Below are positions 1 to 32,685 of a stretch of 64,000 bases of DNA, in pieces. How positions within the stretch are numbered: position 1 is the stretch's first letter; each line of letters opens with the position of its first letter. The translations under genes and the position numbers were made by a program. Source of the DNA: Obrimoposthia wandeli. Its lineage: Eukaryota. The notes beneath the pieces were generated by a model. That model saw only the letters and a program-made list of their open reading frames with translations. It ran no database searches and was not told where the DNA came from. The stretch covers positions 62,001-126,000 of the forward strand of contig CDROCS010004962.1 in NCBI GenBank assembly GCA_977020255.1. The letters are read 5' to 3'.

Positions 1-3000
1 CATTAATCAAGAATCAAGAATGTCAATTTTCAATAACGTCGATTTGGATAAAGAAATGGAGGTTCAACTATATGGTGATCTCTCTCCAGTACAGCTGCAA
101 ACGCCACCACCGGCGCAGAACATTGACTTACTTTAGTCAAGACTCGACGGTGGTGAGCGAATGAGACGAAGGAGAAGCAGCAGCAAGAGCCGAGCTGTTG
201 CTAGAAGAACCGCCATTGGCCAGCTCAACTCCTAGAGAAGAACTAATGAGCGTGAGAGGTGGGGTACAGAGATCCCAATATATCTACGACTAAGATTGAG
301 ACCCGGACCTACGTAAAGTATGGGGCCTTTGAAAAATTGATTGCGTTCACATTAATAAATGTTTGATAATAATAAAATATAATAATAATAATAATAACAA
401 ATACAATACTGATATCCCAGTTGATGTAACAGATGAAGAAACTTTTAAAAATCCTTTTGTAGATGTAATTTATAGGAGCAAAAATGAGGGGACTCAGGTC
501 AACTTAATTTTTACTCAAACAATAATAAAAAATTTCACTATGCTGCAATTCCCAATCGTCTCAAATTTAGATAATGGAGCCTTCCCGGTTAGGATAAGGT
601 GTAAGTGGTATCATAGATGTTTGCATGGATTCCGATCCGAGCTCTCTTACAGCAAACATCTGACATTATGTTCACTGAATCCTGATGACAATACGCTATA
701 CAGCAGGTCTAAGGATAAGGATTTAAAATTCAGGGATTGGGCAAAATGCAAAATGCAATTTTAGCATTGTACGACCAGTATGAGAGTATTCACCTACCGG
801 CTTCGGCAAAACTACTATTCTTAGTCCCCAATATTACACAGTATCATAAATTTTCCGGTCCAAATTGTATTTTAGATTTTATGTTAAAATAAGAAGAATT
901 AGGAACAACAATTGTCAAACCGTGTTATGATCTTAATGCTCATCAAGCAATGATCATGACAGGCATAGACTGGGTTAATTTTAATTCTTGTAGATTATGT
1001 TATTTGTGTGGAACCCAGTCTAAGTTAGTCAGAGATCACAATCATGTTATGGGGCGATACCTGGGAGCCGCGTGCAACCTCTGTAACCTTGGTCGTCGTC
1101 TCCCTAAAAAACCACGAATTCCCATCGTGTTTCATAACCTCAAAGGATATGATTTGCATCATATACTTAAATATGCGTTGGGTACATTAAACTCTTGGGA
1201 AATTTCATGTATACCTCAAACTTCAGAGAAATATTTATCTTTAACTGCATATACTGAATTCTGTAGTTTGAGATTCATAGATTCTCTGCAGTTTTTGAGC
1301 GGGTCTTTAAAAAATTAAACGGCATCTTTAAATGCATGGCCAATCACACAGTCAGTGTTCTCAGCTTCGGTTAACGATATGGGTATTTTTCCGTATAAAT
1401 TTGCAAAAACCTTTGCAGATTTAGAAAATACTACAGAAATCCCACCCATAACTGAATTTGAGGGTGTAAGTCTTCAAGACTATAATGAGGCCCGTACATT
1501 TTGGGCGAATAATTGTCGAAATCTTCTAGAATATATGCTTTATTATATGAAGTTAGACATTTATCTTTTAGCTGATGTGTTTGAGTCCTTTCCTGTAAAA
1601 TCTTTAGCAGAAGATGGGCTAGATCCCATGCATTTCTTTAGTTTACCTGGTCTTTCATGGGCAACAGCATTAAACTCTTAAAATTAATATAGAGTTACTG
1701 CAAGATCCCGCGATGTATCAAATGTATGATTATGCGCGGTGGAATGACTTTTGTCAACAAACATCATCTTGTCAAAAATCAATCCACGGAGATTCTGTAC
1801 ATCGACATCAATAATTTGTATGGGTGGGCGCTTACTCAACCTCTACCTCATGCCAACTTTAAGTGGGTTTATGATGAGGAAGAGTTGAATAAGTTGATGA
1901 CAGATTTGGCTACTGTTGATACAGTTTCATCAGACATCGGCTATTTGGTTGAGGTTGACTTAACAATCCCTTCCAATGTGCATGATAAATTAGATGATCT
2001 CCCAGTAGCACCTGTTCATCAATGCCCACCTAATTCAAAGGTTAAGCAATTATTGTTAACCCATGAAGACAAGTTGAATTATGTTGTGCATTGGCGGATT
2101 CTTCAATTCTACTTAAAGTTTGGAGCGAAAGTTATCCGAATTCATCGTGCTATAAGCTTCAGTCAAAACTTTGTGTTTAAAGACTATATTGAGAAGAATT
2201 CTAGAAAACGTAATTTGGCCACTAGCAAATTTTATCGGGATTTTTACAAGTTAAAAAGTAATAGTCTCTTTGGAAAAACTGTAGAGGACTTGCGGAAACG
2301 TATTTATCTACGGTTTTGCAATGATGAGCGTAAACTAATAACATATACTAGCAAGTACAACTTCAAGCGTAGTTTTACAATTGCAGATGATTTGGTAGCA
2401 GTGTTATTAGGAAAACAGAGTATTTGTCTCGATCGACCGAGTTATATAGGTCAAACGGTTTTAGACATTTCTAAACTCAGAATGTACGAGCTTCAATACA
2501 TAGAATTAGAGAAATATCGAAGAGAATTTAATTGTGAGATTAAAATCGCAGCTGGGGACACTGACTCTTTCTTTTTAGAATGTAGGAATGTTAGTTTAGA
2601 TAATCAATTATTACCGGCAATGTTTAGGGACAACTTATTAGATACCCAAAAATATCCCGCTAACCATTCTCTACATTCTATGAGTTTAAAGGATATTATC
2701 GGGAAATTTAAGGATGAAAGCGAGGGACAGGTTTCGTATGACGATTGTATTTTCCTACGCCCTAAATGCTACAGTTTACATGCATCTAATAATACATGTT
2801 CAATGAGAGCAAAGGGTGTGGGAAGAAACAATCTTGTTGGGAATATTTTATAGCTGTTTATTTTGGAAAAATAAAAAAATATATATATATAAAAAATTTA
2901 AAAAAAAATAAAAATAAGAATTAATTAATTAAAGAATTAATTAAGAACTTTCCTTAATTAGGGAAAATTTCTATTTAGAAAATATGCATTTTGGCATTTT

Positions 3001-3016
3001 AGTTTAGAGTGGTCAA

Positions 3017-3066
3017 TCTCCGACGGGTAAAAAGCCCGTTTCGCCCTGCCGGGCTCATCAGGGAGA
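3017..3066 (-). ncRNA. Type I hammerhead ribozyme
   Basis: Minus strand: UCUCC CUGAUGA GCCC ggca GGGC GAA ACGGG cuuuuua CCCGU C GGAGA. All core nucleotides are present, stems I/II/III pair perfectly (5/4/5 bp), and the cleavage triplet is GUC (cut between 3022 and 3021). Confidence 0.92.
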
Positions 3067-3070
3067 TGGC

Positions 3071-3118
3071 TTGTTATCTCTAACTTCGCGGTGGATTCCG
3101 CGAAGCCAGAGATAACAA
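3071..3118. other. Stem-loop immediately 5' of the hammerhead (minus strand)
   Basis: TTGTTATCTCT/AGAGATAACAA plus CTTCGCGG/CCGCGAAG arms, 6-nt loop; a shortened version sits next to the 32.1 kb copy. Confidence 0.75.
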
Positions 3119-3551
3119 TAATAAAAAGCCAGGGAAAAGAGGGAAAAATTCCCCCTTTCATGTGCCGACGAATATCGTCGACATGTGATGTTGGTGTGCG
3201 CAAGTACACATTTCAACACACACACACTCACACAGCAGACATCACTCAACTCACTCACTCTCACTACTCACTCAATCGCTCACTCAATCCCTTGTTCACT
3301 CACTCTCCCTACTCACTCACTCACCTATCCATTGTGCACATGTGTGTGTGTTTAATTTGAAATTTTCCGCCTGCCCAGAGTTCGACAGGCGGTGAAATTT
3401 CCCGGCTGCACATGTGAGTGTGTGCAGAGCCGGGAAATATCGGTTCTTTTCCGATCCTGCCCTGTCTGTGTGTGCGAGATAAAGGGCAAAGCCACAGAAT
3501 CCCCTCTCTCTCACCTGCCCAATTCTGGAATTGCCGGTGTAATAAAATTGC

Positions 3552-3582
3552 TATAAATAGCAACAGTTTTTGGAATTTCAGT
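3552..3582 (+). promoter_or_regulatory. TATA box plus initiator of the LTR
   Basis: TATAAATA at 3552 followed by TCAGT with the A at 3580, 28 nt downstream (canonical spacing). Confidence 0.55.
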
Positions 3583-3685
3583 AAAACAAAAATCCAATCA
3601 CAGTTCAGTATCTGAAGAATTTACATTATTACTATAAATAGATAAATTAGAGGAGTTTCGTTTTGGTTGGCAGAAAATATATCGA

Positions 3686-4005
3686 CTGATTTACTTTTCA
3701 GACTATTTGGAAACAGTTTCAATTGATTTACTCAGACTATTTGGAAACAGCTTCAATTGATTTACTTTTCAGACTATTTGGAAACAGTTTCAATTGATTT
3801 ACTCAGACTATTTGGAAACAGCTTCAATTGATTTACTTTTCAGAAATATTCAGACTATTTGGAAACAGTTTCAATTGATTTACTCAGACTATTTGGCAAC
3901 AGCTTCAATTGATTTACTTTTCAGACTATTTGGAAACAGTTTCAATTGATTTACTCAGACTATTTGGAAACAGCTTCAATTGATTTACTCAGACTATTTG
4001 GAAAA
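3686..4005. repeat. Tandem array of mostly alternating 37- and 34-bp units inside the LTR
   Basis: AATTGATTTACTTTTCAGACTATTTGGAAACAGTTTC alternates with AATTGATTTACTCAGACTATTTGGAAACAGCTTC, about 9 units. Confidence 0.95.
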
Positions 4006-4499
4006 CAAATTAGAGAGAATTTTTGAATATATTATTATTGGAGACAATTTTCATTTTTCCCACCTAACAATCTTACACATGAGGCATACCGGAAAGTTTA
4101 TGATACTGGGTGTATTGAAAGCGTTGGGCAAACTAGATTTATTTCAAGAGCCCATCAACTGTATTCCCATAAATCAACCAAAATCGCTTTTGGGTAGAAA
4201 AGAACGCTAGCCTGGCTTATGGACACTTCAGAATTTAAACAATTTTCATTTTTTGATTTTTTAGTTTAGTTTTTAAAATTTTAGATCCCTATGGCACCTT
4301 GACTCTAACTTTTTGTTATTTCAATATATTTTTTAGGTTGGGCCTTATCTTTGCTGACAGATCTCATTGTCATGTTGTTTTTAATAAATGTATTAAAAAA
4401 TATTCGTCTTATGTCTTTTATTATTTTACCCTTATATTTTTTAGGGATTTAAAAAAATAATTCAAAATAAAACATTAAAAATATTTATTTTTATAACAC

Positions 4500-4881: not shown

Positions 4882-5450
4882 CTATAATATGACAGTTCTG
4901 TTTTTATTGATTTGTATTTCCGAATCAAACACTCCGTAAATAAGCACCGTAGTAGGATGTGTTAAAGCTGCATTGAACTTAATTTCTAGTCATAAATTTC
5001 CATCCTTTCATAGTTGGCATTGGTTTATATCAAAGTCTGGTGCCAAACAAATGTGAAGAACGGGCAGCTACTTTTAAACTCAGTGAAAGAAATACCATTG
5101 TTTATATTTTTATCTAGTTGGCCCAAATTCCGAATAATAGATTGCGTATAAGCCAAAGCATAAACGTTACCTTCCAAATCTGTTTTATATGTTTCGCGAT
5201 AATCAGTATTTCTTGAAAGTGTCACTGAACCTACATTAAGATTGTCAAATTGAGTTGCATCTGTCGTATAATTTCCTAGATACTTTGCAGTTTTTTGAAA
5301 AGAAATTAAAATGAATTTCGGTAATCTTACATCACCAAAAATTTGATCCTTATTAAAAGCTTGTGTATCCGTACCTAAAGAATAGAATATAAGTTTAGTT
5401 TCTCTAATAGGATAACAAGCATTGTTTTTTTCCATTCCTATATTACGATT
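4882..5450 (-). pseudogene. Major capsid protein (PY), C-terminal half, element A
   Basis: NACYPIR..K...SL, IFG..RLPKFILISF, F....VGSVTL, YTQS..RNLG....NNGISF..FK...FFTF, LIYGVFDSEIQI; aligns by eye with the element B MCP. The N-terminal half is missing at the RT junction. Confidence 0.9.
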
Positions 5451-5476
5451 TTAGCGATGTCGATTTAGATGGAAGG

Positions 5477-6784
5477 ATGCATATGTTGGCTACAAAAGGC
5501 TATGCGCCTTTTGCCTCCATTAAAGCCTCCAGGCAAAGGAAGAGAGTCAATGTTAATCAAGATGAGAAGCAACACATCGATGCATGCGTTCAAGCTCTTT
5601 TTCAGGCAGGTATCATTGAGAAATATACTAAAGGCCCCTTTTGCTCTCAAGTAAGAATGGTGCCCAAAGCCAACTCAGAATTACGGCGTCTTATAGTAGA
5701 TTTTAAACATCTAACGCCACATTTGCCTCAGCTGCATATGAAAATTCCGAATTTAGCCAACAGGCTCAAAAGTATCCCAGCTAATAGACTAGCAATTAGA
5801 ATTGACCTCAAGGGAGCTTTTTATCAAGTCAAGATACGTCAAGCTGCAAGACATCTGACAAATTTTTGGAATACCGAATGTTACTACCGTTTTACACGGT
5901 TGCCCATGGGTCTTCGCCAAAGCCCAGCAATCTTGCAATGGGCCATAACCAGAATCCTCGGACAATTGAAGACAAAGTGGCAAGTGGATTTAGCCCAAGT
6001 TCATATTGATGACATCTTGATCATCGCAATGCCCAATGCCAAAGTTTGGAATGAGATAAAGACTTTCTTCGAAGGATGGGGCCTCCAAATTAATTGGAAG
6101 AAGTCACAACTACAGCCAGTATCCAAGATCGAGTATTGCGGCATGTTTATTGACATACAACGCCAGGAGGTGAGTGTCAGTGACACCAAGTGGAACACCG
6201 CCAATGACATCATCGAAAAAGGTCAGTACTCAGATGACGCAATAGGTTTTTTAAATTACATAAGTTGTGTTTTACATTGGCCATATGTGGCAAACTATGT
6301 TAATCCGAGCCTCAGGAAACTATGCTACTACACATTAAAGAAGTATGCCTCTACTTGGAGTTGGAGAAACAAAAGCGGGCTCATCTGGGCCACGGATGTG
6401 ACCAAGACAACTATCGCAGTTACAAAGGCCAAACCGCTGGAAATCGCGCTCACAGCGAAACTAAAAGAAGAAAACATCTATCTTCAAGAGGCCAGAGCGG
6501 TGCTGATGGCTATGTGGAAGGCGAGTCGAGGAGATACAATTCTCTGCGACAATCTAGCCTTGGTTTGGAGCATCAGGAATAGGCGAATACCAGCGCAAGT
6601 GGAGCATTGGTGGACGCTTATCGCGGTGCAACTGCTCGCCGTTATCAAACAAATCACAGTACAATTCATCCGTACTCAGTATAATCCAGCTGACGCTCCA
6701 ACCAGATCTGCAGAGACCCAAGCCAAGAAGGAAGAAGATTGGGGAGTGTTACTATCTCTAACCATGCATCAAGCAATAACATGA
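5477..6784 (+). CDS. Reverse transcriptase-RNase H (DIRS/hepadnavirus-like), intact 435-aa ORF
   Basis: RT: VPK....RRLIVDF..L, IDLKGAFYQV, FTRLPMGLRQSP, VHIDDILI, GLQIN.KKS.L.P...IEYCG..ID. RNase H: WATDVT, LQEARAV, LCDNLA, YNPADAPTR. No gag, protease, integrase or tyrosine recombinase nearby. Confidence 0.92.
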   Translation: MHMLATKGYAPFASIKASRQRKRVNVNQDEKQHIDACVQALFQAGIIEKYTKGPFCSQVRMVPKANSELRRLIVDFKHLTPHLPQLHMKIPNLANRLKSIPANRLAIRIDLKGAFYQVKIRQAARHLTNFWNTECYYRFTRLPMGLRQSPAILQWAITRILGQLKTKWQVDLAQVHIDDILIIAMPNAKVWNEIKTFFEGWGLQINWKKSQLQPVSKIEYCGMFIDIQRQEVSVSDTKWNTANDIIEKGQYSDDAIGFLNYISCVLHWPYVANYVNPSLRKLCYYTLKKYASTWSWRNKSGLIWATDVTKTTIAVTKAKPLEIALTAKLKEENIYLQEARAVLMAMWKASRGDTILCDNLALVWSIRNRRIPAQVEHWWTLIAVQLLAVIKQITVQFIRTQYNPADAPTRSAETQAKKEEDWGVLLSLTMHQAIT

Positions 6785-6874: not shown

Positions 6875-7008
6875 TACCACCTTTGGGTTCCAGGCGTGAT
6901 GTGATTGGGTGGCATTTATTATATAAGCTGGCACAAAAATACAATCAGTGCCAGTCTTATATAATAAATGCCACCCAATCACATCACGCCTGGAACCCGA
7001 AGGTGGTA
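6875..7008. repeat. Near-perfect inverted repeat (60-bp stem, 13-nt loop)
   Basis: Arm 6875-6934 is the reverse complement of 6948-7008 apart from one bulged T and one T/G pair; loop AAAAATACAATCA. Confidence 0.97.
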
Positions 7009-10379: not shown

Positions 10380-10652
10380 ATAGGGGGAACCCCCCGCCCC
10401 TCCCTCCTATTTGATGCTTTTTCCCCTACACATACACAAAATTTCACTCCACACACATGCACGAATTTTCACTCCACACACATGCACGGTTTTAAGGGAC
10501 AGTGGTACCCCCGGGGGTAGAAAATTTCACTTCACACACATACACGAATTTTCACTCCACACACATGCACGAATTTTCACTCCACACACATGCACGGTTT
10601 TAAAGGACAGGGGGAGTGGGGGTGTGGATTAGACCGGACACATCCACCTACT
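10380..10652. repeat. Right terminal region of element A: 24-bp CGAATTTTCACTCCACACACATGCA repeats, CCCC-GGGG palindrome, short terminal hairpin
   Basis: About 5 copies of the 24-mer, GGTACCCCCGGGGG at about 10504-10517, GTGGAT/ATCCAC hairpin just inside the CTACT end. Confidence 0.8.
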
Positions 10653-12465: not shown

Positions 12466-13413
12466 CATAACCTTTCAGAAATTTAGTGTTAAACTAGTTT
12501 TTGCGTTATGAGCAAAGTTTATCGGTATTCCACTATCATTACGAATATTTACTTCAATATTGGAAATAGATGTTGATATTACAGGAAGATACATATGGTC
12601 TAATGATTGTAATATTTGCGATATCACCATTTTTTTGTTTTTATCTAATCAAATTGTTTTTAACAATGGTATTTTTACACCACCAACATTTATAGACTCT
12701 ATCAAATTGGTATACAGGTACTTGTGATCAAACTCACATATTAATTGTGGAATGCCTTTACCGTCACCTGTAAATTCTGTTTTATTAAGACCCAGTACAA
12801 ATGCCATAAGATTATTAAACAGTATGCTTGAAATATTAGATTTTAACTTGAACTTAATGAATTTATCTTTTTCAATGTAAAACATACTAAAAATATGATT
12901 ACATTTAGATATAACGTATTTAACTAATGCATTCAAATCTGTACTATTGAAAACGTTGTCAAACACGATTTTTGAATTGATATCTTTCTTTCCTAATTGA
13001 TAATATTCGAATTTTGTTGATACATATTTATGATGTATGGTTTTTTGAGCAGTTAAAATACAATTATCATCAGATGCTAAGTAATTTTCATGGTTTAATT
13101 CATTATTTAGGAAACCCAATTGATTTTTCAATTTTTTCGATAGTTTTATATAGAATTTCTGTTTATTTAAAGATTTTAAAACAAGTACATTTTCCTTTTT
13201 ATCTTTGCCATATGTACCAAACTCACAATAAAGATTAGCAATGCGTTTTGATGATTTTATTTCTACTTTTGAAATTTTCTTTATATTAAATTTAACAGGT
13301 TTATGCTTATCATTATGAATTTCCCCATCTTTAAATTCAACATTTAATGAGACAGTATCGGTTTTCTTAGCACTTACCGTTTCCTTATAATTTATTTCAC
13401 TACCCTTGTCCAC
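12461..13413 (-). pseudogene. Minor capsid protein (penton, PX), N-terminus apparently deleted
   Basis: C-terminal signature YLYTNLIESINVGGVKIPLLKT, then PY......I..IEVNIR...G.PI.F......TL.F after a stop. Confidence 0.8.
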
Positions 13414-14197
13414 ATAGTAGAAATACTACTTCAATATGATTATTCAAACATACTACACATTCAGGTTCATTTAACATGTATGAAAGTATATTTAAGTATT
13501 GTTTTTCAGGGTCTTTTTCTAAATTATATAAATCACAAATCATTTCAAATAATGAATTGTATTCTCCATATTGCATCATTTTATATTTTAAAACAGATTT
13601 TATTCTCTCTCTCGTGAAAAACCTTTTCAAGTATCTGATGTTGTTGGTATCCATCAACATGTCGAATTTTTCCGTAGTTAAAGGATATTCACTTATACAA
13701 TCTGATTCGTTTTTCTCAATAACATTAGCATCATTATAGGGTCCTAAACCTTTTGAATAACATATATCAGGTAATTTTACAACAATATCTGATATATATA
13801 CTTTTCCAATCAATGGTGATGTATCAAAATCAATTTTCTTGACCATAGTTTCAATTATTGGTACATTTGAAACATTTAACTTTAAAATAAATGGACATGT
13901 AAGAAAAAATTTCATATGTTGCTTCATTGGTTTAAGATACCATTCCCATTCGGATATTGCACCTTGACAGTATATACATTTTACTTTATCAGTTGAATCA
14001 TCATCATGTTTATAAAATCCAGCTTTAGCTAAATTATATACAGATTGTTTCCCTTTAAAATTTATAATTAACAATCTTAATCTTTCACTTTCACGTCTAT
14101 ATTTCCCGTGTAAAACTTTCATTCTAGAATAATCTACTTTTCGTCTAACTAAAACATCATCAACAGTTTTATAATGAAGTATATAATCAACAAGCAT
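13400..14197 (-). CDS. Inhibitor-of-apoptosis-like protein: one BIR domain plus truncated RING
   Basis: E.ERL...LAKAGFY...VKCIYC...EWE...PM.QH......CPF (CCHC zinc ligands intact); C-terminal ECVVC...VVFLLCGQ stops mid-RING. Likely start is the ATG at 14197. Confidence 0.88.
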   Translation of the reverse strand: MLVDYILHYKTVDDVLVRRKVDYSRMKVLHGKYRRESERLRLLIINFKGKQSVYNLAKAGFYKHDDDSTDKVKCIYCQGAISEWEWYLKPMKQHMKFFLTCPFILKLNVSNVPIIETMVKKIDFDTSPLIGKVYISDIVVKLPDICYSKGLGPYNDANVIEKNESDCISEYPLTTEKFDMLMDTNNIRYLKRFFTRERIKSVLKYKMMQYGEYNSLFEMICDLYNLEKDPEKQYLNILSYMLNEPECVVCLNNHIEVVFLLCGQG

Positions 14198-14222
14198 TTT
14201 TAAAAAATCAAAAAACATATAT

Positions 14223-14231
14223 TTGTTTATA
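14223..14231 (-). promoter_or_regulatory. TATAAACAA motif
   Basis: Overlaps the TBP-like B stop; 25 nt upstream of the ATG at 14197. Confidence 0.65.
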
Positions 14232-14545
14232 AGAAACTATCAAGAAAAAATACAATAGACTCGACTTGACAATGATAATCAAAATCTTTAATACCAAGAA
14301 TAATCACTTTTCCACTAGCAAACACATTAACACAGAGGATTATATTTTAAAATTCTGAGTGCTGGAAACAATTCTGGTTCAAACATACAATTTCTTCCCA
14401 TTTTCATAGATATCTTATACAAATTAACCTTCTTGTTGATATTCACTAGGATACTTAGAGATTGAATACGTTCAATTTCTATATTTTGAGCATCTTTGAT
14501 TGGTTGTTTGCAATCCATAATTCTACATGAACCTAAATAGTAGTA

Positions 14546-15594: not shown

Positions 15595-16075
15595 CATACA
15601 ACGCCAAAAAAGGTTTTGCAGTAAAACGTACCCCACCTATTGCCTTGAGTTAGTATGCGCGATTTTCAGACCAAATGTAGGCCAAGTCTCGAAATCCTAC
15701 ATACGAACTCAAATTGATTTTGCAGTAAAAAGGTACCCCCCCTCCGGGGGGACCTATTACCATTGAGTTAGTATGCACGATTTCAAGGCTTTTTGGTCAA
15801 GTCCGGAAATCACACATACGAACTCAAATAGATTTTGCAGTAAAAGGTACCCCCCGGGAGGACCTATTACCGTTGGTTTAGTATGCGTGATTTTCAGACC
15901 AAATTTAGGTCAAGTCTCGAAATCCTGCATACAACGCCAATATGGTTTTGCAGTAAAAAGTACCCGGCCCCGGGGGGGACCTATTACCATTGGTTTAGTA
16001 TGCGTGATTTCGAGACATTTTGATCAAGTCCAGAAATCACACATACGAACTCAAATAGATTTTGCAGTAAAAACG
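15595..16075. repeat. Subterminal array of about 104-115-bp units with central C-run/G-run palindromes
   Basis: TTTTGCAGTAAAA recurs at 15614, 15718, 15833, 15946 and 16060; two alternating subtypes; GTACCCC..GGGGGACC cores. Confidence 0.9.
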
Positions 16076-17624: not shown

Positions 17625-19383
17625 TGTTAGATTTAGGAATTGAAAAATTAAAAGAATTAGTTAAATTTATACTAAAATGAAAATCCTTGAAAGCAAGGTT
17701 GAAAATTAAATATTAAAATCGAGTTAAAATATTAGGACTAGAATTAGGGGTAAATATTAAGAGGACCACGAAGGTCGTGTGTAGTGTGTTGTATATATAG
17801 GTTAATTAGAAAATATTAAAGTGCAAAATAAGCAAAAAAGCAAAAAGAGACAAATAAGAAAATCGAAGAAAAAGAAAAGTTAATTGCTGAATCGACGTCA
17901 GCAGAAGAAGAAAAGAGTAAGCGCATTTTTGGGTGCAGAGTTAATTAACTCCGTCACAGGTAGAAAACCCGGAAACCAGCTGTCGATCAAGTGATCGACA
18001 ATCACAAGTCCCAGTCGCGGGAAAGCCAGAGCTCAGCAAGCAGCTGCAAATCAAGTGCTCCACAACCAACTATATAAGTCGACTAAAAACCCGCACAGAG
18101 AATCAACAGAGAAAGCCAGGACACACAGAGGTGAGTGCTTTGTTTAAGTGCTCAGAATTCAGAAAATAAAAGTATAAAAGGAAATTATCCTTTTGCGAAT
18201 TGCCAGAAAACGAAATAAACTAGAATAAAGAGAAAGCGAAATTGAACTCGTTGATTTAAGCCAAGCAGAAGGATCGAACAATACTACCAAAGGAAACTCC
18301 GGACAAACGATCAGGAGCGCTTGATTAAGCCGAGCAGAAGGATCAACCAATACTAGCGAGAGAATTTCTGGTCAAACGATCAGGAGCGCGGAAGGAGTTA
18401 ACTAGGAGACGAAACGCGGTTAGTCAGCAAGTCTTGTTTCCGTGGAGACCTTGCAGCACCAGTTCCCAGCAATTCTAAGCTCGGAGTTCGTCGGACATCG
18501 CAGAGACGCAGACTCGAATCGGCGGCATTCCTAATCATTGGTGAGATAGGAGATATAGCGGCGTCTGTTTATATATATTCGTATTTTGAAGTAGAAAGTT
18601 GAATAAATAACTGATTCGTATTTTGAAGTAGAAAGTTGAATAAATAACTGATTCGTATTTTGAAGTAAAAAGTTGAATAAATAACTGATTCGTATTTTGA
18701 AGTAGAAAGTTGAATAAATAACTGATTCGTATTTTGAAGTAAAAAGTTGAATAAATAACTGATTCGTATTTTGAAGTAGAAAGTTGATAAATAACTGATT
18801 TGTATAATCGTATTTTGAAGTAGAAGTTGATAAATAATTGATTTATATAATCGTATTTTGAAGTAGAAAGTTGATAAATAACTGATTTATATAATCGTAT
18901 TTTGAAGTAGAAAGTTGATAAATAACTGAATTGTATAATCGTATTTTGAAGTATAAAATTTTGAAGAATTAGAGTTGATTCAAATCTATAAAGTCAAAGT
19001 TACCCTCATTTTTAAGAGTCCAGACTTTAGGGATCAACTAACCTTAACCTTAAAATCGATACGTGGTTCATCCCCACTTGTGTAGAGACTTACAGAAGTC
19101 TTAGGAATTCTTACCATACTTTTTAGAAGATACGTACATAAACGTATTGTTGTGTTATAGTTTAGTGTGTTACCAATAAACGATTTCCTACATTAGAAAA
19201 CGTTGTTTTAAACCTTTCAGATTAAGAGACGTCAAACAAACACCTTCAGATAAGAAATAGAGATAGGCAACCATAACCCTAAGTAGGCCACGACCAACTT
19301 TAAGACCTGCTTCTATTCGAACTCACGTTGGGGCCCTCCGCACAAAAGAGGATCTATACAAGTTTCATATAGAAACCCCAACA
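17625..19383 (+). mobile_element. Solo LTR (Gypsy-type), 1759 bp
   Basis: TGTTAG...CCAACA ends with 4-bp TSD ATAC (17621-17624 / 19384-19387); removal restores the transposase frame; TATATAA at 18071; internal ~68-bp duplication 18257-18390. Confidence 0.88.
18577..18955. repeat. 37-44-bp tandem array inside the solo LTR
   Basis: About 10 copies of CTGATTCGTATTTTGAAGTAGAAAGTTGAATAAATAA and longer variants. Confidence 0.95.
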
Positions 19384-32006: not shown

Positions 32007-32685
32007 TGTTTGGATTTAAATTTGAATAGTTAATGGTTAATTAAAATGAATTACGGAGGTAAATTGGGTTTCAACCTCCGACGGGATAAACCCGTCTCGC
32101 CCTGCCGGGCTCTTCAGCGAAGTGGCTTTATCTCTGACTTCACGATAAACAAACGCCTGCAAAGCCCGACATAAGAAATGAAATAAATTCCATCACACAT
32201 ACACACACAGACAGACAACAATTTATACATATATACACACTTTCCAACTCACTCCCTACTCTCTCATTACTCACCAATCGCTTTCCGTACTCATTCATTG
32301 TTCTGTGTGTATGTTTGTAAATGTAGCACGTTTTCCCACCTTCTCAGAATCCAAGCAGGCGGCCAAAAATCCAGGCTGTGTATCTGTGTGTGCAGAGCCG
32401 TGTATTTATCTTTTCCCTCTCTCCATCAGTGACGGCCACTCTATCAGCGCTCTCAGCCTCGCTCTCGCTCAGTTCCTCTCTCATATCTATCTTTACCATC
32501 GTCCGCAGGCTCCAACTACCAGTTACAAATATACAATTATTATTAATGCATAAATATTTATCACCACAAAAGGTCAATGTACAATTTGCCACAAAAGTGA
32601 ATTTATTGAAGAATCACAAAAGTCCACGAAAAGTTTGTCATTACAATATATCTACGAAACCTTTACCATTACCAACTCATTAACA
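32007..32685. mobile_element. LTR-like insertion related to 2835-4069
   Basis: TGTT...AACA ends; shares the hammerhead, adjacent hairpin, CA-rich tract and GTGTGCAGAGCCG with the first LTR; no clean TSD found. Confidence 0.6.
32074..32123 (-). ncRNA. Type I hammerhead ribozyme, degenerate copy
   Basis: ACUUCG CUGAAGA GCCC ggca GGGC GAGA CGGG uuuau CCCG UC GGAGGU. Same scaffold, but GAGA replaces GAAA and there is a G-G mismatch at the base of stem I. Confidence 0.8.

Follow-up and report, generated by a model that had tools for sequence, protein, structure and literature searches.

In this study, we analysed a stretch of 64,000 nucleotides (nt) from the genome assembly of Obrimoposthia wandeli (contig CDROCS010004962.1, positions 62,001 to 126,000; hereafter the window) and followed one long terminal repeat (LTR) in it through the genome. 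The retrotransposon to which this LTR belongs is an autonomous Ty3/Gypsy LTR retrotransposon of about 14 kb with gag-env-pol organisation. Near the 5' end of its U3 (the unique 3' region of the LTR), sequence comparison identifies an intact and selected hammerhead ribozyme of type I on the antisense strand, and this arrangement is widespread in the genome. An env-bearing Ty3/Gypsy clade would thus keep a presumably catalytically competent ribozyme on the strand opposite to its genes. We propose that the predicted ribozyme severs a presumed antisense RNA just before the coding region and thereby lowers silencing of the element, a proposal whose chances we consider evenly balanced.

The window hammerhead lies at 3016..3067 on the minus strand and, judged by core, helices and predicted fold, is a full-length member of the type I hammerheads. 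All 13 core letters are present, Rfam family RF00163 is matched with 32.4 bits (E 7.1e-6), and the predicted fold of the minus strand shows the three helices. The consensus core of CUGANGA, GAAA and UH surrounds three helices with helix I open, and all scored pairs are formed: helix I (3067-3062/3021-3016, 6 pairs), the CUGAUGA core (3061-3055), helix II (3054-3043, 4 pairs), the GAAA core (3042-3039) and helix III (3038-3024, 5 pairs). Cleavage is predicted after GUC at 3022/3021, inside U3 and 187 nt from the LTR 5' end. An earlier reading made from the letters alone (the sequence-only reading) had named a canonical type I hammerhead with this same cleavage site, and both statements hold; it had the motif on the correct strand at 3017-3066, which is one pair too short on each side. 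It also described an adjacent 19-bp hairpin. This long palindrome with GATA-like motifs (3071..3118) does adjoin the ribozyme upstream and contains 19 Watson-Crick pairs, but two G-U pairs bring the minus-strand total to 21; it lies outside the conserved core. The score of the window copy falls just under the RF00163 gathering score of 34 bits, and therefore a scan of the window at that threshold gave 0 matches. In the genome, 6 of 24 matches to RF00163 exceed the gathering score, and all six are modules of the LTR families described here. The hammerhead descriptor found no perfect match on either strand of five block-shuffled windows. A second, sense-strand ribozyme was not found in the LTR, neither at Rfam E<=10 nor by descriptor. 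In four contig runs from one sample, strandless and possibly not independent of the assembly, the sole listed substitution within 3016-3067 affects N7 (3057), next to a 1-base loss in loop III. Two further minus-strand features lie beside the helices: an unpaired U1.7 with the following GA (3013..3015), which may touch the terminal A of loop 2 in the tertiary structure, and a GCC adjoining helix I (3068..3070), which could pair with the GGC of loop 2, although no covariation was shown for this pairing.

The sequence-only reading was also right that the ribozyme resides in a true LTR. The repeat spans 2835..4069 on the plus strand, has TGTT..AACA ends (TG..CA) and is flanked by identical 4-bp target-site duplications at 2831..2834 and 4070..4073. 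It is a solo LTR of family A, one of at least seven families of hammerhead-bearing LTRs (A-G, labels of this analysis). A search of the genome with the window LTR listed 57 matches from 3204 first-look candidates. Duplications of 4 bp were present in 14 of 30 LTR end-pair rows, and most of the remaining rows represent either the 5' LTR or the 3' LTR of a paired element. At C1449, paired family A LTRs with a matching 4-bp duplication flank a coding element of 14.1 kb; the LTR pair at C6026 has matching 4-bp flanks too. All open reading frames (ORFs) of the C1449 element run on the LTR plus strand through a coding interior of about 12 kb, in which a gag-like region and a Monjiviricetes-type fusion glycoprotein form one fused frame, followed by protease, reverse transcriptase (RT), RNase H, integrase, unassigned ORFs and a 3'-5' exonuclease. 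The order of protease, RT, RNase H and integrase is supported by Pfam matches (L061 ORFs), and the env domain (PF24664, E 1e-88) is located in a gag-env frame of 1245 amino acids (aa) upstream of the protease. The best database matches of the RT are 38-55% identical, and the matches include no RT of the platyhelminth GAG-ENV-POL elements discussed below. The closest solved relatives of the exonuclease are ISG20, ISG20L2 and SDN1; in the search for other species it had 0 database matches. Reading frames are broken in most copies examined. The two LTRs of paired elements are 96.7-98.8% identical (5 pairs), and these elements are therefore young.

Directly after the 5' LTR, a primer site is complementary to the 3' end of the multicopy host tRNA-Trp(CCA) over 11-12 letters including CCA. 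Primer site and ORFs thus define the plus strand as sense and the ribozyme as antisense. Thereby the search for full-length elements recommended by the sequence-only reading yielded both orientation and coding capacity, and the U3 location and antisense polarity that it had assigned were borne out. It had derived polarity from a TATA box and an initiator-like (Inr) site. Both exist in the sequence of the plus strand (3552..3582; TATA at 3552-3559, TTCAGT at 3577-3582, predicted start ~3580), and the TATA context of family A recurs in the aligned LTRs of families B and E, but the sense of the element no longer depends on them. Its suggestion of an LTR-retrozyme-like family is not supported, given a protein-coding Gypsy element of about 14 kb with the ribozyme opposite to the primer-site strand. 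A conserved, weakly purine-rich motif precedes the 3' LTRs in families A, B, C and E. Self-priming or a self-encoded primer was considered and rejected, as host tRNA-Trp fits the primer site. At L286 (G000:C5734:143176-151119), at least 36 tRNA-Trp genes stand in tandem with a period of ~207 bp. The tRNA clusters in L220, L222 and most of L157-L186 have bacterial features, which suggests bacterial contigs in the assembly. Within the window LTR, U5 (the unique 5' region) contains a tandem array of 34/37-nt units on the plus strand (3687..4004) whose length differs among copies, and a GC-rich U3 segment (3350-3480) may form several hairpins on either strand (z -3.7 plus, -5.7 minus). This segment is recognisable in families A and F and in some C copies, and has no Rfam match.

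In most copies examined across the genome, the ribozyme is tied to one strand and one end of the LTR. The core pattern has 8,908 genome matches, compared with 11 for the reversed control. Under a strict test, which required an LTR 5' end on the other strand at 60-260 nt beyond the cut, 155 of 192 copies passed, whereas three control arrangements gave 3, 9 and 2; the 192 remained from 201 once 4 junk rows had been dropped together with copies that had short flanks, core<12 or pairs<10. Of the first 30 core matches by position, 27 were scored, and 24 of these passed the same test. A looser LTR-end pattern, superseded by the strict one, gave 168/199 against 66 in the control and put the ribozyme at a median distance of 160 nt (range 67-219 nt) from the 5' end of the LTR. 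Within the stretches with full-length elements (L061-L072 and L217), all 12 LTR hammerheads are antisense and none is sense; one junk sense row with a 12/13 core lies in AT-rich DNA. Both LTRs of paired elements carry the ribozyme. A perfect core was present at 29 of 30 loci picked by whole-LTR similarity. Another selection used only the 3' end of the LTR and gave 19 loci; the 5' end was in reach in 17 of them, and all 17 keep the module (14 perfect, 1 at 12/13, 2 damaged). A Penelope fragment inserted in only some LTR copies, the case that the sequence-only reading had set against itself, does not agree with this retention or with the sharing of the module across diverged families. The window itself contains a second, degenerate hammerhead at 32074..32123 on the minus strand, in which GAAA reads GAGA and the first helix I pair is mismatched; it belongs to the older, related family F and lies antisense within a decayed LTR remnant of that family (32040-32480; 1298 first-look genome candidates). 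At L148:1495-1960 (G000:C4515), two hammerhead-bearing LTR fragments of different families lie head to head, 4 bp apart.

The LTRs of the families have diverged from one another. For family B we recovered a full element with the same genes and primer site, with 75-84% protein identity to A in pol but only about 38-40% in the exonuclease. In families C and E, the ends, primer sites and PPT-like (polypurine tract-like) motifs are specific to the family, and exonuclease matches of 32-47% lie adjacent; the LTR status of C, D, E and G rests on such ends, primer sites, motifs and exonuclease matches. The element at L064:2500-6663 (G000:C6026) is a chimera: it has two ORFs for the exonuclease, and a family E LTR lies inside it, ahead of its family A 3' LTR. 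This chimera and the difference between A and B in pol (~80% identical) and exonuclease (~40%) suggest that a cassette of exonuclease plus U3 has been swapped between lineages. An extra internal ribozyme as a general feature was rejected, since the one in C6026 is part of the LTR of the other family. When single LTRs of families C, E (two) and G were aligned with A, the ribozyme was the sole or dominant alignable segment, joined by the TATA region in one E copy; in B and F, the hairpin aligns besides the ribozyme. Family D gave no blastn alignment with A, though its ribozyme is evident by descriptor. The hairpin is present in A, B and F, shortened in C and lost in E. It was rejected as part of the ribozyme because of its absence in E and because A and B carry its arms in exchanged positions.

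Selection on the ribozyme is indicated by the comparison of 201 distinct hammerhead copies (about 4 junk rows included), which were mostly gathered by similarity or core pattern and are related rather than independent. Helices I, II and III each show alternative Watson-Crick pair types, for example CG 139, GC 27 and TA 11 at helix II pair 2, and GC 129 and CG 31 at helix III pair 2. N7 is variable (U 86, C 73, A 24). Features that the scan does not score are nevertheless kept, namely U1.7 in 195/201 copies, the terminal A of loop 2 in 193/201 and the GCC beside helix I in 168/201. A contact between U1.7 and the loop A was described in fast natural hammerheads (PMC11875169), and pseudoknot contacts are common in hammerheads (PMC3088659). 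Conservation of these bases supports a tertiary contact between loop 2 and stem I. The core pattern alone also retrieved, from other species, 11 prokaryote-type loci without Gypsy proteins (metagenome contigs L287-L297), and 7 of these 11 unrelated hammerheads share the UGA..GCC/GGCA set. This recurrence supports the tertiary reading and marks helix II as a generic design. Family-fixed G-U wobbles that are usable on the antisense strand only occur in 18 E-type and 16 C-type helix I copies. The overall count of G-U versus A-C (153:57) is biased by the scoring used and carries little weight. Conservation on the antisense strand only implies selection on antisense RNA.

How could an antisense ribozyme serve the element? 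Self-cleavage is confined to RNA and leaves its products with a 5'-OH and a 2',3'-cyclic phosphate. Since the minus strand made during reverse transcription is DNA, the motif could act only on antisense RNA from integrated copies. Such RNA might start divergently at the promoter of the LTR itself or stem from host read-through. In the 3' LTR, the cut would fall 70-220 nt before the antisense transcript leaves the LTR into the coding region. The ribozyme would cut rather than terminate, and would part a capped 5' portion from an uncapped downstream portion that starts with 5'-OH and has no 5' phosphate left. Potentially, long antisense RNA that would otherwise form double-stranded RNA (dsRNA) or feed PIWI-interacting RNA (piRNA) production is thus destabilised or disabled, and lineages that keep the ribozyme would consequently transpose more. 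In yeast, ribozyme-cut mRNAs were found to be quickly degraded (PMC3241649, in the part consulted). The adjoining ISG20/SDN1-like exonuclease ORF would fit an RNA-defence cassette, which is a conjecture. In its widest form, to which we lean slightly less than we doubt it, the proposal describes a clade-wide, strand-specific counter-defence: an antisense-only U3 hammerhead, travelling with a small-RNA-type exonuclease as a 3' cassette, would have spread to about 9,000 sites and would cut host transcripts that cross oppositely oriented LTRs.

Several points weigh against this cutting of antisense RNA as the selected function. Conservation of the core is inflated, because most copies were chosen by similarity or core pattern. 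Within family A (28 copies), the minor-letter rate of the ribozyme is 0.0115, compared with 0.010-0.016 for U3 3074-3350; the ribozyme thus shows no greater conservation than the U3 beside it, and the selection signal therefore lies between families only. Protection would be partial, because the upstream cleavage product is still complementary to the U3 of the genomic RNA. Finally, 5'-OH ends are poor Rat1/Xrn2 substrates and the polymerase runs on past a hammerhead, according to the consulted parts of PMC2702688 and PMC3241649, so that downstream antisense RNA may persist.

The main rival explanation is that the cut defines the end of a functional antisense RNA instead of destroying it. The product might be a short upstream hairpin-ribozyme RNA, a 5'-OH RNA antisense into the exonuclease ORF that controls copy number, or a unit-length RNA from LTR to LTR, possibly circularised. 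The conservation across families fits such processing as well, and the resistance of 5'-OH ends to Rat1/Xrn2 would favour it. The downstream product is able to fold back on itself in family E (18/18 copies of its helix I type), but rarely in other helix I types (9/81, 0/13, 1/7). The presence of the ribozyme in both LTRs of paired elements would permit unit-length products, and type I hammerheads with tertiary contacts are reported to ligate efficiently (PMC7229834, in part); an antisense circle would, however, be without a usable primer site. Moreover, no antisense ORF of >=100 aa is present in L061/L062, and the hairpin is lost in family E. On balance we regard RNA processing as a possibility, but an unlikely one.

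The equal conservation of ribozyme and neighbouring U3 in family A would also be expected of a passive relic, in which an ancestral U3 captured a piece of a retrozyme or Penelope element that was then kept as a DNA-level enhancer or by hitch-hiking. Many old copies are decayed, and Penelope-type minimal hammerheads do appear to exist elsewhere in the genome (L115/L116:1500-1545, G000:C367); these have almost no helix III, are unrelated to the LTR families and are probably of Penelope type. The LTR ribozyme, in contrast, has a stable helix III and no tandem arrangement. Compensatory changes in three helices, a free N7 and kept unpaired tertiary bases among otherwise unalignable LTR families, as well as the retention in 17/17 LTRs picked by their 3' end, argue against a relic and make it improbable in our view.

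A third explanation couples the motif to the primer tRNA. Either tRNA-Trp or its 3' fragments would bind the ribozyme and switch it off, or the sense U3 would anneal to the primer site and so close the genomic RNA into a circle. In family A, the antisense core equals the primer site in 10/11 first letters, the primer is the host tRNA-Trp, and the predicted duplexes of U3 and primer site reach -29 (A) and -33 (B) kcal/mol; one of two family C rows was disregarded in this comparison, as it held the primer site of another element. However, helix II departs from the primer site in families C, D and G, and the identical 24-letter core occurs in the unrelated prokaryote-type hammerheads. The likeness was noticed after the fact and, because of this shared core, is probably due to chance. 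Such a coupling is thus very improbable. To something other than all these explanations we assign a small share of the probability.

By the defining features tested, the motif is neither a retrozyme nor a Penelope motif. The statements on other systems that follow refer to the parts of the cited papers that were available. The closest described relatives of the element are the platyhelminth GAG-ENV-POL 'errantiviruses' (Smed_errantivirus_1-6; PMC13524379) and Burro (PMC6431247), which likewise have a mononegavirus/gB-type env between gag and pol; a flatworm is accordingly the presumed host here. The Smed errantiviruses are 14.5-18 kb long compared with 14.1 kb here, and the env of Smed_1 looks clearly homologous, by eye only, to the one described here. 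The main text of PMC13524379 has 0 instances of the word 'ribozyme', with the Smed LTR sequences themselves left out of the comparison, and hammerheads are mentioned in PMC6431247 for Penelope, Terminons and retrozymes only. A primer tRNA (here tRNA-Trp) is not assigned to Smed or Burro elements in these two papers. Plant LTR retrozymes also combine a hammerhead in true LTRs with a 4-bp duplication and a Ty3/Gypsy-type primer site (PMC4918200, PMC7761336), and their Ty3/Gypsy-type polypurine tract may correspond to the weakly purine-rich motif before the 3' LTRs here. They are, however, non-coding and ~1-1.5 kb long, and their type III ribozyme shares a single, circularising RNA with the primer site (PMC4918200, PMC7761336), whereas the present element is autonomous, ~14 kb long and has a type I ribozyme on the strand opposite to the primer site. 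Penelope-like elements and Terminons are autonomous animal retroelements that also bear type I hammerheads in terminal repeats, but these are minimal motifs in pseudo-LTRs, with weak or no helix III and no tertiary contacts (PMC4209133, PMC7761336). Here, the full monomeric design with stable helix III is found in the true LTR of an integrase-coding Gypsy element, in place of the Penelope RT/GIY-YIG context. Animal non-LTR retrozymes likewise comprise thousands of copies of canonical type I hammerheads, yet they are small tandem repeats without LTR, primer site or polypurine tract (PMC7229834; bioRxiv 10.64898/2026.07.22.740005), while the present motif is dispersed and LTR-linked. An accessory DEDD 3'-5' exonuclease after pol is also known from invertebrate Gypsy-type elements, the bdelloid LTR retrotransposons with a DEDDy ORF3 (PMC5408684); the exonuclease here is nearest to ISG20, ISG20L2 and SDN1 instead, and PMC5408684 does not contain the word 'hammerhead' (0 occurrences). 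The retroelement ribozymes reviewed in PMC6765202 and PMC7761336 each process the sense RNA of their own element.

In the literature searched, as far as its text was available, a hammerhead in an autonomous LTR retrotransposon was not found; subscription papers, Repbase, Dfam and all supplements except that of PMC13524379 lay outside this search. In other species, the hairpin pattern gave one chance match in viral contigs and 0 in metagenomes, and the RT search gave no viral loci. The hammerheads of L287-L297 are of prokaryote or phage type and mostly type III. The LTR ribozyme has its 24-letter core and its UGA..GCC loop in common with them, which would reflect convergence or a distant origin.

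The surroundings of the LTR in the window are themselves rich in mobile DNA. The insertion broke a Polinton-like DNA polymerase B reading frame (1693..2830, plus strand; PF03175, E 1.9e-16). The Polinton-like polymerase B region spans 893-2853 and continues beyond 4073, with an endonuclease VII match at 893-1315. The family B element at C579 (L218) harbours a nested Polinton related to this one. An ORF with RT and a viral-type RNase H-like domain at 5411-6784 (plus strand), probably DIRS-like, is followed at 6875-7008 by an inverted repeat that is nearly perfect over 53 nt and encloses a loop of 28 nt. An ORF at 13400-14236 (minus strand) encodes a BIR (inhibitor of apoptosis) domain; BIR domains were noted in Burro elements (PMC6431247, in part). 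Tandem arrays occupy 18540-18970 (37/44-nt units), 15607-16072 (~113/228-nt) and 10403-10613 (25-nt).

If the proposed cutting of antisense RNA is true, hammerheads would have a function new to them, and the present one would be, as far as we could find, the first ribozyme of an autonomous LTR retrotransposon. The cut site with its cyclic phosphate and 5'-OH ends would give a single-nucleotide handle on how transposons evade or tune silencing by piRNA and dsRNA. The model species Schmidtea mediterranea, for which ample PIWI data exist, hosts the closest described relatives of the element, so that the idea is testable on existing genomes and on stranded and small-RNA libraries. With ~8,900 intact-looking cores in one genome, the ribozyme may shape transcripts of the host too.

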